Source: Octopus vulgaris (taxonomy: Eukaryota). From it: a stretch of 64,000 bases of DNA. The notes under the pieces were generated by a model that was given only the letters and a program-made list of their open reading frames with translations, was not told the origin of the DNA and ran no database searches. The stretch spans positions 39,184,001-39,248,000 of the forward strand of contig OX597822.1 in the NCBI GenBank assembly GCA_951406725.2, given 5' to 3'. Positions 32,125 to 62,084 of this stretch are shown in pieces. The first letter of the stretch is position 1; each line of letters begins with the position of its first letter. Position numbers and translations under genes: made by a program.

Positions 32125-32331
32125 AATTTATACGTAATGGCCTCCTTCTCTTCCGGTTTCCTAGTCATTGTTTTTTCAATCTAATTCTCCTCGTCTTTGG
32201 TTTCTCTTCCGTGTAAACATCCAGTAATGCTCCTGTAGAGTGGTTATTCGCTATCAGAATGGGCAATGCACTTCGGTTACCATTGACCATTATCAATTGA
32301 GAGTTTTGCCAACATTTTACACTCGGAGGAT
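32125..32331 (-). CDS. Coding exon 7 with TGA at 32167-32165 and 40 nt of in-frame post-stop sequence
   Basis: tttctttgtccag|AT CCT...; [68 protein letters not shown]; donor T|gtgagt at 32124. Confidence 0.85.
32161..32170 (-). promoter_or_regulatory. Stop-codon readthrough context CAA-UGA-CUAG
   Basis: The minus strand reads AAA CAA TGA CTA GGA. UGA-CUA(G) is an established leaky context in metazoan mRNAs and alphaviruses. Confidence 0.7.
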
Positions 32332-59300: not shown

Positions 59301-62084
59301 ACACACACACATAAACATATACATACATATATATATGTATGTATATATATATGCACATATATATATATATGTGTGTATATATATGTGAGTGTGTATATAT
59401 ATATATATATGCATATATATATACATATTTATGCATATATATATATATATATATATATATATATACATGGGCAAGTATCTGCTACTATAGCCTTGGGCCG
59501 ACCAAAGCCTTGTGAGTAGATTTGTTAAACGGAAACTGAAAGAAGCTCGTCGTGTATATATATATATATATGTAAATATATATACATACATATACATACA
59601 TACACACACACACACACACATATATATATGTATTTGTGCGTCTGTGTTTGTCTCTCCCACCATCGCTTGACAACCGATGTTTGTGTGTTTTCGTCCCCGT
59701 AATCTAACGGTTCGGCAAAAATAACCGATAGAAAAAGTACTAGGCTTGCAAAGGATAAGTCCTGGGGTCGATTTGTTCGACTAAAGGCGGTGCCACAGCA
59801 TGGCCGCAGTCAAATGACCGAAACAAGTAAAAGAACAAAAGAATATATATTTTTATATATAACTTAATTCCCGGCCAGTGTTGGTCCAAGCTGATATATA
59901 TGTACTGTTCCCATTCGAAGTGGACTCTAGTTACGACGTTTCGTATATGTAAATAATGCGATCGATGATACAAAAATAAGTGATGGGTGTATATACATAT
60001 TTCAAGATTTATTGCACTGTCATCAACACCAACCACTAAGTGTATCGGTATAACACTAATGAATGTACCAATTTACATGTTTAACACATTCTTCACCACT
60101 ATTACATACATATTAATTGCTGGCTCTAAATTGTATAGAATATCCGTTGAGGTAACTTAAGTGATTGAATCGCACTGTTAACACAAAAAGGTAGGAGACA
60201 ACACTGACTTATAACTCTTTTTATATACTTAGTAGTATATTATTGTTGCTAAACGAAATACGGTGTTCCTTCTGGCAATGAATAAATACTGGGTAAGTCT
60301 ATTCATTTACAGAGTTATCTCTGCGGCTCAGGTGATTTCTACATGACACAGAGATAAATGGAGTAGAACGTATAGGTTATCATTCCCATGTTCCGTAGCC
60401 AACAAGGGCCGCTGACATCTTGCATTTGCAAGATTTTAGGTTAATAGCCTATCATTCTATAGATGTAACTAATTTTCAGCTGCGTGGACTGGAGAAAAAA
60501 TGAAATGAAGTGCTTAGTCCAAGGGTGCAACATACTACCCAGTCTGTGTGAATCTGACCCAGACAACTGTGAGCCCAACAGCCTAACTACAAGGCCATGC
60601 ACCTTTACTAGTATATTGGTTACATCGTTATTTATACGAAGGCACCCTCATTGATCTATGTTGTCCTTATTTTAAAGACAATAACATGTTGGATGGCGGA
60701 ACTTCGGCTGTTACATTGAGCAATTAGAACAACCACGTAGAATGATTTCCGGTTGGTGGTTACTGTTTTTGCTCCACGTCGGACCCATAATCGAAATTGT
60801 TCAAGCCTTGACTATCATATTGTCTTGGTGTATAAGTCAACCTATTCCCGTACAGTGACGCGCACACACACGCTCGAGTTCTAGTCACAAACACAAACAC
60901 ATACATACATGTATACATTAACAACTACATTCACATGCAAATACATAGCGGTTAGATACGTATCCTAGCACATAGACACGATCAATGACGCACACACACA
61001 CATATACACCATGGCTGATAAGAATATAACTGGCGCTCCGTCGGTTATGATGACGCAGGTTCCAGTGGATCCGATCAAGGGAACAGCCTGATCGTGAAAT
61101 TAACGTTGAGCACTCCACAGACCCGCGTGCCCTTAACGTAGTTTTCGGAGAGATGCAACGTGACACAGAGTGTGACAAGCCTGGTCCTTTGAAATACAGG
61201 TACTACTCATGTTTTCTAGGTGAGTGAACTGGAATAACGTGAAATAAAGTGTCTTGCTCAAGGAGACAATACGCCGCCAGGAATCGAACTCCCGACCTTA
61301 CGATCGTGAGCCGAATGCCCTAACCATTAAGCCTCGAACCTACACCAGACAAGCTCCTATAGTGATACAGACGCACATACACCGACACACATGAACACAG
61401 ACACGTGCACACGCACACACACACACACACAGATATACAGTGATGCATACATATATAACTACACGCATACTGTGACACACCCACCCATGTAAAGATAGTA
61501 CGTATACTATGACACACACATACATTACCCTAAAAGACCATAAAGCATGTCAAAAGCAGATAAATTGAATTGACAACAGGCTTTTCTACCTCATATCTAT
61601 GTGGCTTTATAACAACTATATTAGAAAACAGTAATACCGATAGGTGGTCGAAGATTGGGTCTTTGGATTAATAAGCACCCGATTGTTGCCATCAATGTTA
61701 GTGGTTCATATATTGAAAACAAAAGTATACGATGGCACACCACTGTGGATGTGCAAATGAATAGCTTTTATGTGAAGCCAGCAAAATAAAAAAAATTACC
61801 ACAATAATTAGACTGAAACAAAATATTTTATATTAAAAAATTACTTACAGTCGGAATTGGTCGCTGTTAGAGTTCTGACGGTCTTGGGTGAAATTCGAAC
61901 CTGTGTCATTTACGATGGGGTAGGCTCTGAGTGTAGCTGATGTACTGCTGTCAGTTTGTTCCTGGTCTTCCTCTGTGGTTGATCGCGGTAGAAATCCGGC
62001 CTGAAGGATCTCGGCCGAGAACAACCAGCAGATCGATAATGCGAGCAGGTAGTGCATACTTCTTTGTTTCCAATTGTCCGACAT
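32165..62084 (-). CDS. Spliced gene: secreted TGF-beta-family prodomain-containing protein, 332 aa, join(62084-61849,40957-40821,40376-40341,38579-38430,36681-36604,35261-35067,32331-32165); no mature ligand domain found
   Basis: All introns are GT-AG and phases match (2,1,1,1,1,1). Exon lengths 236+137+36+150+78+195+167=999 nt. Signal peptide [20 protein letters not shown]. Prodomain motifs: [22 protein letters not shown] (alpha1/latency lasso), [47 protein letters not shown], then a basic C-terminus. Family recognised from motif memory. Confidence 0.88.
32544..32741 (+). mobile_element. R4/Dong-like 3' end in (TAA)n
   Basis: [30 protein letters not shown], then 3'UTR ending CTACTGAATAATAAT. 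Confidence 0.85.
32990..33207 (-). mobile_element. R4/Dong-like 3' end, inverted relative to the 32544 copy
   Basis: Reverse complement of the same 3' segment, near-identical to 46961-47229. Confidence 0.85.
33250..33830 (+). mobile_element. Highly decayed Penelope-like GIY-YIG remnant
   Basis: ..[18 protein letters not shown] resembles PLE W.IL..C.LC..EK; frameshifted. Confidence 0.4.
34322..34337 (+). promoter_or_regulatory. CTCF-like motif
   Basis: CCGCCAGATGGAGCAG compared with consensus CCASYAGRKGGCRS, in non-repetitive intron 6 sequence. Motif match only. Confidence 0.35.
35067..35261 (-). CDS. Coding exon 6 (W-x-x-F-D...W-L...N-x-G-L prodomain motif)
   Basis: tttgtcttcag|CT CGT...; [65 protein letters not shown]; donor A|gtgagt. 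Confidence 0.92.
36604..36681 (-). CDS. Coding exon 5 ([26 protein letters not shown])
   Basis: tcttctccatcacag|TT GAA...AAA C|gtgagt. Phase 1-1. This frame is not in the ORF track. Confidence 0.85.
36964..37016 (-). ncRNA. Type I hammerhead ribozyme-like motif, U4C core variant
   Basis: aacaaaactgt-CCGACGA-ACG ggaa CGT-GAAA-CTC c GAG-TA-acag(g)ttttgtt. Stems I, II and III all pair. Confidence 0.65.
37263..37320 (+). ncRNA. Type I hammerhead ribozyme-like motif, canonical core
   Basis: ataa-CTGAAGA-GATG...CATC(C)-GAAA-CTC g GAG-TT-ttat. Confidence 0.65.
38430..38579 (-). CDS. Coding exon 4 (prodomain arm strands)
   Basis: ttttaccgtttcag|GT CGT...; [50 protein letters not shown]; donor G|gtaatt. 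Confidence 0.9.
40341..40376 (-). CDS. Coding exon 3 (36-nt micro-exon, [12 protein letters not shown])
   Basis: gtgttacag|CG CAT...CAA G|gtaaca. Phase 1-1, in frame, no stop. The gene also stays in frame without it, so support is weaker. Confidence 0.65.
40821..40957 (-). CDS. Coding exon 2 (prodomain alpha1 helix and latency lasso)
   Basis: catccatag|A ATC AAG...; [45 protein letters not shown]; donor T|gtaagt. Confidence 0.9.
41725..42085 (+). mobile_element. Non-autonomous Helitron
   Basis: 5' TC(TCTCTATATATAAA), 3' hairpin CCCGAGCAACGCCGGG then CTAG; inserted between A and T with no TSD. Confidence 0.8.
43101..44180. repeat. ~1.1 kb degenerate (TA)n/(TACA)n microsatellite field with internal ~94-bp duplication and a CA-rich/TG-rich/CA-rich layout
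   Basis: Direct inspection. It is the source of the spurious 245-400 aa ORFs. Confidence 0.9.
45065..46505 (+). mobile_element. Two tandem ~510-550 bp copies (45065-45575, 45950-46505) of a (TAA)n-associated retroposon 3' end; partial third copy at ~1565-1870
   Basis: Near-identical blocks CTGATTGGAAGTGTTATC...CTCTCTCACTCAATAAT, each flanked by (AAT)n. Confidence 0.8.
46961..47545. mobile_element. Two divergent R4/Dong-like 3' ends of different subfamilies (46961-47229 minus, 47295-47545 plus)
   Basis: [28 protein letters not shown] and [27 protein letters not shown]. Confidence 0.85.
51030..51720 (+). mobile_element. RTE-like LINE RT fragment split by a SINE
   Basis: [24 protein letters not shown] | [11 protein letters not shown] ... 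GYADDL. Confidence 0.7.
51169..51552 (+). mobile_element. SINE family C with 11-bp TSD TATCAAAGGAG (related copies 48285-48575 minus, 52717-53008 minus, 62375-62660 plus)
   Basis: tRNA-like head TGGCCCAGTGG..GTTTCGATTCCC; TSD at 51158-51168 and 51553-51563. Confidence 0.85.
53224..53522. repeat. Inverted repeat with ~100-bp near-perfect arms and a ~90-bp spacer
   Basis: ATATTATTAGTGAATTGAAGAAATGGAG...CCAAATTCCG / CGGAATTTGG...CTCCATTTCTTCAATTTACTAATAATAT. Confidence 0.9.

Follow-up and report, generated by a model that had tools for sequence, protein, structure and literature searches.

The locus and its encoded protein

We analysed a 64,000-nt stretch of Octopus vulgaris DNA (G000:C9:39184001-39248000; hereafter, the window) bearing a gene for a TGF-beta family prodomain that is not followed by a growth-factor (ligand) domain. 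The window has a G+C content of 35% and contains many microsatellites. According to splice-site scans, the gene lies on the minus strand, begins with the ATG at 62084, ends with the TGA at 32167-32165 and comprises six coding exons, all with AG/GT ends (Table 1). An alternative for exon 3 at 39172-39094 was rejected, as it has a stop in the required frame.

The spliced open reading frame (ORF) encodes 320 aa, and its translation is identical to P0001, an Octopus vulgaris protein by NCBI naming. An earlier interpretation made from the letters of the DNA (the sequence-only reading) had given 332 aa; its other counts were reproduced in the spliced ORF, namely ten N-glycosylation sequons and six cysteines after the signal region, including a CPC motif, which occupies residues 177-179. 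The cysteines are at positions 19, 120, 125, 177, 179, 262 and 272, the first of them in the signal region. By hydropathy alone the N-terminus is hydrophobic (KD9 maximum of 2.5 at residue 13). The sole Pfam domain of the protein is PF00688 (TGFb_propeptide; E=5.9e-12, 46.2 bits vs. a cut-off of 25.8), which upholds the assignment as a prodomain; the Pfam scan found no cystine-knot ligand domain (PF00019) in the 320 aa, and a sequence check found no RGD. Within the coding frame there is neither a furin site nor a mature domain: near the C-terminus only a minimal RxxR is present, at 313 (Argonauta has RVRR there), a few residues before the stop, and an RKRR lies only after the stop.

Table 1. 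Parts of the octopus prodomain gene, with positions in the window.
Feature	Position	Strand	Basis
Exon 1, coding part: ATG, hydrophobic signal region (~aa 1-29), variable N-terminal extension	61849..62084	-	matches P0001/P0005
Exon 2: straitjacket (alpha1 helix, latency lasso; ~aa 80-105) and first part of the group signature	40821..40957	-	aligns to GDF8 alpha1/lasso
Exon 3: remainder of the CxxPxCxxPxxTDxxxW signature, first arm strands	38430..38579	-	splice scan, motif
Exon 4: CPC motif, an arm strand and the first part of the basic loop	36604..36681	-	spliced ORF
Exon 5: arm-domain core (W..F....V..W....NFGL), strongest propeptide match	35067..35261	-	PF00688 E=0.46 alone
Exon 6: final arm strand, remnant of a basic cleavage region, stop, 40 nt of 3′ untranslated region (3′UTR)	32125..32331	-	contigs of 4/4 runs
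Stop codon TGA in TGA-CTAG context, 40 nt before the last junction	32165..32167	-	same C-terminus in P0005, P0006, P0002
40 nt after the stop: 13 open codons, including a furin-like RKRR site, that end in a junction-spanning TAA	32125..32164	-	
Intron 6 (GTGAGT ... CAG), within the 3′UTR	30797..32124	-	contigs continue from 32125 into 30796 and below
Exon 7, untranslated in the main mRNA; 58-codon open frame at 30794-30621 without family match	30370..30796	-	contigs

Residues 191-204 of P0001, at the exon 4/5 junction, form a strongly basic loop that is also basic in the insect and mollusc consensus; the loop is a candidate heparan-sulfate site or internal furin site. At the other end of the gene, an upstream in-frame ATG (window 62085-62243, minus strand) yields a 373-aa model, P0007, which runs across a GA microsatellite and is probably an annotation artefact.

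Translation stops at the boundary of the growth-factor domain

To follow the transcript, contigs of four sequencing runs from four studies were compared with positions 31040-32345. The runs are not recorded as RNA and were taken as such because the contigs are spliced; contigs drop rare variants, and rare isoforms are beyond their reach. In all four runs the main contig covered exactly 32331-32125 without a single differing letter, and its loose ends matched the 3′ end of exon 5 on one side and the sequence from 30796 on the other. The donor at 32124 was thus joined to the start of exon 7 at 30796 in four of four runs, so that the exon with the stop is not the last one but is followed by a non-coding exon that the sequence-only reading had missed. 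The contig before exon 6 measured 880-896 nt in three runs, compared to 796 nt for exons 1-5, and by length arithmetic reaches only 84-100 nt upstream of the ATG (contigs cannot show starts). The contig after exon 6 measured 414-444 nt in all four runs, consistent with its reaching the TA microsatellite near 30370. One run also contained an unspliced contig through intron 6, at a depth of 19 vs. 1334, depth being a poor measure.

The TGA lies 40 nt upstream of the last junction seen. Stops less than 50-55 nt from the last junction usually escape nonsense-mediated decay (NMD), and because of this position the octopus stop codon probably escapes NMD as well. TGA-CTAG is a read-through motif, found at 2 of the 967 minus-strand TGA triplets in the window; the exon 6/7 junction forms a TAA in the read-through frame, such that read-through adds only 14 residues. 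The product would be a short furin-cleavable tail only, and the RKRR after the stop may be a remnant of an old cleavage site. The four runs showed no differences over exon 6 and thus carry no information on the conservation of the post-stop codons.

Exon 7 contains an open frame of 58 codons (30794-30621, minus strand) in coding-intron phase, with KKRKR and one Cys (chance ~0.07), and skipping of exon 6 would put this frame into translation. The idea that exon 7 is a fossil ligand exon was unsupported, as it scores 0.1 bits against the group knot profile and has no Pfam match.

Taken together, the results show that translation of the spliced mRNA ends where the growth-factor domain would begin, with no knot joined. 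This agrees with the prodomain-only architecture proposed by the sequence-only reading: the contigs splice exons 5, 6 and 7, a second stop is formed at the junction, and the tail of the spliced mRNA, exon 7 included, has no PF00019 match.

No cystine knot near the gene

Genome-wide, PF00019 matched at 13 places, none of them near the gene; the only match on the same contig is ~80 Mb away. Two home-built hidden Markov models (HMMs) of the knot, one made from this genome's own ligands and the other from the divergent knots of the closest relatives, gave best domain E values of 1.4 and 1.3 over the window and 200 kb downstream, and no cystine knot was found in the 232 kb downstream of the gene. 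The failure to see a ligand exon by eye in the downstream part of the window was thus confirmed by profile. When the knot-bearing Solemya protein P0016 was searched against the genome, four matches were obtained, none over its knot, and the only significant one was exon 5 of the octopus gene (E=1.8e-6). A 'CGC-stop' motif candidate downstream, at C9:39.158 Mb, was discarded, having no acceptor or knot context.

Conservation among cephalopods

The same C-terminal residues were found in O. bimaculoides P0005, O. sinensis P0006 (N-terminally short) and Argonauta P0002. Two Logan clusters (7 and 3 members, 297-305 aa; seven of the ten sequences were viewed) consist of ligand-less proteins of the same architecture, which are 41-46% identical to the octopus protein and end ~23 residues earlier. 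All trees place them as sister to the octopods, and they presumably come from squids or cuttlefish. All four cephalopod representatives have 8-11 sequons.

Identity to Argonauta is 110/121 in the arm, 26/31 in the signature region, 23/34 in the straitjacket (exon 2; see below) and 18/47 in the N-terminal extension. Compared with the Logan clusters, 64-66 of 121 arm residues and 6-10 of 47 residues of the extension are identical, and octopods and Logan clusters share 16-18 of 34 straitjacket residues. Arm identity far exceeding that of the N-terminal extension points to purifying selection, i.e., by its substitution pattern this is a constrained gene and not a dying one. The exon structure, described as intact by the sequence-only reading, is so indeed: the six exons have AG/GT ends, the splicing of exons 5, 6 and 7 is seen in the contigs, and the protein is conserved in orthologues. 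The gene is very probably both ligand-less and functional.

A protostome-wide group of relatives

A profile search of 1.84 billion representatives returned 108 hits, the best relatives being mollusc proteins with and without a knot. Among the 106 non-cephalopod hits, 27 bear a knot according to a group-specific HMM (its training set of 15 knot-bearing sequences included 12 of these same hits); these are 8 canonical myoglianin- or maverick-like ligands and 19 group members. The 79 knot-less hits include fragments and incomplete models. In an independent Pfam scan of 29 relatives, PF00688 was present in 28 and PF00019 (E up to 0.1) in 10. Named knot-bearers come from Solemya, Patella, Haliotis and Nucella, and named knot-less members from Mytilus, Ostrea, Mercenaria, Sinanodonta, Bulinus, aphid, planthopper, whitefly, many beetles, krill and mite.

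Members of the group share the signature CxxP[ST]CxxPxxTDxxxW, which a regular expression found in 58 of 84 group rows and in none of the 8 canonical ligands, the motif having been defined from the same hits; P0001-P0004 have both the signature and a DC...C pair. Matches to group members reached E=2.5e-26, compared with 1e-5 or weaker for myoglianins. The similarity is reciprocal: the best hits of the octopus protein are group members, and Solemya P0016 leads back to exon 5. The cephalopod profile matched the insect ligand-less proteins at E=6.5e-30 and canonical prodomains at E=3e-22. By similarity, and with varying support in the trees, the octopus protein belongs to a protostome-wide, activin/myostatin-related group, and it probably falls in the same orthogroup as the insect ligand-less proteins. 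Of the origin from an activin/myostatin-like gene proposed by the sequence-only reading, the relatedness stands. A private derivative of the octopus's own activin/myostatin genes is improbable, because the nearest relatives of the protein belong to a distinct group that spans the protostomes and has its own signature.

The knot of the group is short and usually has a single Cys in place of the CC of canonical ligands. In P0016, P0018, P0020, P0021 and P0040 the next Cys follows closely on CxGxC, and the inter-chain Cys is absent. Such shortened-knot mollusc proteins may be ligands that stay monomeric or do not signal, a stage preceding loss.

Loss of the knot was traced on a 91-row mixture tree, which was a quick tree with 19 short rows dropped, and on further trees of hand-picked subsets of 33 and 35 rows. 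In the 91-row tree the knot label changes eight times, at least three of the changes being forced by starred branches. On the hand-picked subsets, a single origin of the ligand-less rows was rejected by the approximately unbiased (AU) test (p-AU 0.00018 and 4.6e-5). By these trees, the knot degenerated and was lost more than once in the group; repeated loss is the simple reading of them, and regain seems unlikely. The same 91-row tree joins the cephalopods to other molluscs with a Shimodaira-Hasegawa (SH) support of 91, and the profile similarities given above (6.5e-30 vs. 3e-22) favour the group over a placement with myoglianin.

The Atlas look-alike scores, which are leads without alignment, connected the cluster 'protein anachronism isoform X2' with both P0001 (0.96, rank 2) and Tribolium P0070 (0.95, rank 1). 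In excerpts of the literature, Drosophila Anachronism (Ana) is homologous to the TGF-beta N-terminal domain, the only domain listed for it (PMC3901678), and is a secreted glial glycoprotein (PMC10913833); the excerpts of two reviews describe it only as a glial glycoprotein delaying neuroblast division (PMC10913833, PMC7339912). On these leads, the octopus group is probably the group of Drosophila Ana, and orthology to fly Ana is likely. A survey of fly, mouse and worm prodomains counts seven fly members and never mentions anachronism in its excerpts (PMC7017013); surveys of TGF-beta genes that are keyed on the knot would miss this group.

Straitjacket and arm

The best sequence match in the PDB was pro-GDF8 (pro-myostatin), with E=5e-34 for the group profile (i-E 1.8e-13 for the prodomain part) and E=0.006 for the single octopus sequence. 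Exon 2 aligns with the alpha1 helix and lasso of pro-GDF8, i.e., with the ligand-gripping part of pro-myostatin (the straitjacket). An AlphaFold model based on 13 close sequences was uninformative (pLDDT 34).

We scored the straitjacket against a profile made from six canonical ligands only. The median was 15.1 bits in cephalopods (n=4) and 15.4 bits in knot-bearing relatives (n=19); among the other ligand-less members, the bivalves (n=9) had 7.5 bits, the insects (n=28) 0.85, the Bulinus group (n=6) -2.1 and the crustaceans (n=7) -5. Arm-core medians were 41-66 bits in every ligand-less group. By these scores, knot loss usually relaxes the straitjacket, and in cephalopods it does not. The sequence-only reading had proposed a secreted antagonist or carrier acting in trans. 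This fits the octopus protein, which is prodomain-only, conserved and in possession of its straitjacket, but fails for the group as a whole, where the straitjacket has mostly decayed.

Proposed mode of action and its alternatives

The boldest reading, with a probability of roughly 0.35, is that the Anachronism group is an overlooked extra subfamily of protostome TGF-beta proteins which passed from ligand through decayed knot to free prodomain at least 3-5 times, and that the cephalopod straitjacket traps ligands of the myoglianin or activin class. The explanation that we favour concerns the octopus protein itself, which would be a secreted, N-glycosylated stand-alone prodomain composed of straitjacket and arm. 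Its retained alpha1 helix and lasso would wrap a mature TGF-beta family dimer encoded by another gene, most likely of the myoglianin or activin class, and mask the receptor sites of this ligand, just as is done by the free myostatin propeptide and the latency-associated peptide (LAP) of TGF-beta1, which bind and inhibit ligands. The basic loop may tether the complex to heparan sulfate or matrix, so that the net role would be that of a dedicated secreted brake or reservoir. The retention of the straitjacket and its likeness to pro-myostatin fit such binding of another ligand in trans, to which, taken by itself, we give even odds. Knot-less myostatin isoforms are described in excerpts of two papers as inhibitors of myostatin (PMC10570081, PMC3846833). 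Two myoglianin-like ligand genes, L007 and L009, lie ~300 kb apart on one contig (G000:C27:10.93 and 11.23 Mb), and by their class they are candidate targets of the free prodomain.

Several observations weigh against this explanation. On a profile made from the group's own knot-bearers, the cephalopod straitjacket scores 14.7 bits vs. 27.6 for the knot-bearers. The arm is the most conserved region, 91% identical to Argonauta vs. 68% for the straitjacket. A strict alpha1 motif is present in 25 of 26 knot-bearing and 16 of 57 ligand-less hits of at least 300 aa; most ligand-less relatives thus probably do not act by way of the straitjacket. In the careful tree the cephalopods group with other molluscs at only 41/20, and a quick LG+G4 tree of 33 rows makes them sister to myoglianin (SH 86), a relation that the AU test did not reject (p=0.47). 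As for Ana, an unrelated LEFTY2-fragment cluster ranks equally for P0001 in Atlas (0.96), and no sequence named anachronism was found among the profile-search hits or their named relatives. Finally, the precedent is imperfect, as sheep MSV, according to an excerpt of its description, binds myostatin through a novel C-terminus (PMC3846833).

The conservation of the arm would also fit another function, in which arm and basic loop bind a receptor of their own, heparan sulfate or matrix, with no binding of a TGF-beta ligand. It would cover the whole ligand-less group, Ana included, and the cephalopod straitjacket would be a structural leftover. It draws on the high arm scores in all ligand-less groups next to straitjacket scores of about zero in insects, crustaceans and the Bulinus group, and on the basic loop that follows the VY strand in the group consensus. 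Nevertheless, all four cephalopod cluster representatives keep a straitjacket scoring like that of the knot-bearing relatives on the canonical profile, and its 16-18 of 34 identities between octopods and Logan clusters are hard to explain without a partner. We regard an arm acting alone as less likely.

The tree of 33 rows raises a question of origin that is separate from the mechanism: the cephalopod gene could be an independent duplicate of myoglianin that lost its knot and is unrelated by descent to Ana. Besides the SH value of 86 and the p-AU of 0.47, the straitjacket, which is very near that of GDF8, and the match to the canonical prodomain profile at E=3e-22 would agree with such an origin. 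It is nonetheless unlikely, as the signature occurs in 58 of 84 group rows, cephalopods among them, and in 0 of 8 canonical ligands, the insect ligand-less match is stronger, myoglianins match far more weakly than group members, exon 5 is the only significant genome match of Solemya P0016, and the 91-row mixture tree places the cephalopods with other molluscs.

Prodomains chaperone folding and dimer choice, and a retained straitjacket could also serve inside the cell, where the octopus protein would co-assemble with a full-length family precursor in the secretory pathway, as a folding helper, a dominant-negative partner or a carrier extending the range of a ligand, rather than inhibit outside it. 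Pairing of prodomains across subfamilies, predicted in an excerpted study (PMC7017013), also speaks for such a role. The ten sequons (8-11 across cephalopods) and the secretion of Ana reported in an excerpt (PMC10913833) fit an extracellular role equally, and an intracellular one appears improbable to us.

Lastly, low-level production of a ligand by stop read-through, adenosine-to-inosine editing of the TGA or occasional splicing to a knot exon that lies far away or is missing from the assembly is very improbable: the TGA-CTAG context, the in-frame RKRR and the phase-1 GTGAGT donor, on which the read-through idea had rested, speak for it, as does the loss of rare variants from contigs, but read-through into a ligand is rejected since the donor joins exon 7 (one Cys, 0.1 bits against the knot profile) and a TAA forms at once, no edited letter was seen in exon 6 in the four runs, there is no knot nearby and none of this group genome-wide, and the Logan orthologues end ~23 residues earlier.

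Other ligand genes and features of the window

Two near-identical BMP5-8-like ligand exons, L005 and L006 (G000:C23:28.29 and 28.33 Mb), lie on opposite strands at a distance of ~40 kb and have separate propeptide exons; the pair is either a recent inverted duplication or an assembly artefact. L008 (G000:C9:119.09 Mb) and L010 (G000:C28:11.82 Mb) are divergent TGF-beta ligands in which one Cys stands where CC is usual. The ligands of the genome also include L004 and L001, the latter of the BMP2/4 type. Downstream of the gene, window 1-885 and 4771-5615 (minus strand) contain, judged by eye from the translations, a reverse-transcriptase-like frame of a long interspersed nuclear element and Tc1/mariner-like transposase fragments. 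An inverted-repeat scan of the window gave 2502 pairs, and only microsatellites were found among the 25 longest.

Significance and comparison with known systems

Free prodomains have so far been met as products of cleavage, as minor splice forms and as engineered inhibitors. If trans-binding is correct, the cephalopod member is the cleanest case of a gene-encoded stand-alone straitjacket and would represent a new class of antagonist beside follistatin, noggin and chordin; fly Ana, mechanistically unexplained since 1993, would gain a mechanism as a glial TGF-beta antagonist. Ranging from a full through a degenerate knot to none, the group would be a natural experiment on the prodomain acting alone. 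If the link to Anachronism holds, a classic gene of neural-stem-cell quiescence is tied to TGF-beta signalling, and the octopus gene becomes a candidate for regulating neurogenesis, muscle growth or regeneration in cephalopods. In excerpts of PMC5829083, the BMP ligand Gbb promotes the proliferation of fly neuroblasts and activins are named as further regulators; antagonism by Ana is thus directly testable.

Propeptide-only proteins as such are already known, in flies and in automatic annotations, and are not a new kind. What appears to be new is the group with its repeated knot loss, the probable identity with Ana, and the compact cephalopod variant with an intact straitjacket. No paper on the gene or the group was found in an open-access library; subscription papers and supplements, which lie outside that search, may describe the group.

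The octopus protein shares the two-part prodomain with the GDF8 propeptide and the TGF-beta1 LAP, and its alpha1/lasso segment aligns with pro-GDF8. In contrast to it, these are released by cleavage of a precursor with a ligand of its own, and the octopus gene encodes none; the octopus protein also has no RGD, and its six cysteines and CxxPxCxxP signature are unseen in the canonical hits. Human myostatin-b and sheep MSV are likewise natural prodomain-based inhibitors of a TGF-beta ligand, as excerpts of their descriptions state (PMC10570081, PMC3846833), but a ligand gene produces them as minor splice forms, whereas the main octopus transcript is ligand-less and conserved in cephalopods.

Closest by HMMER (E 2.5e-26 to 9e-20) are the mollusc 'GDF8-like' or uncharacterised genes of Solemya (P0016), Patella (P0018), Haliotis (P0021) and Nucella (P0020), which have the signature and the cysteine pairs in common with the octopus gene. 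They differ in keeping a furin site and a short divergent knot (PF00019 from E=2.5e-7 to no match); the octopus gene stops at the knot boundary. Anachronism, in the excerpt of PMC3901678, is just as the octopus protein is predicted to be, a secreted glycoprotein for which the TGF-beta N-terminal propeptide is the only domain listed, and the insect members of the group share the signature and match the cephalopod profile at E=6.5e-30. The insect proteins are longer (mostly ~350-800 aa), many carry His/Arg-rich tails, and their straitjacket has decayed, whereas the cephalopod protein is compact and has kept it.

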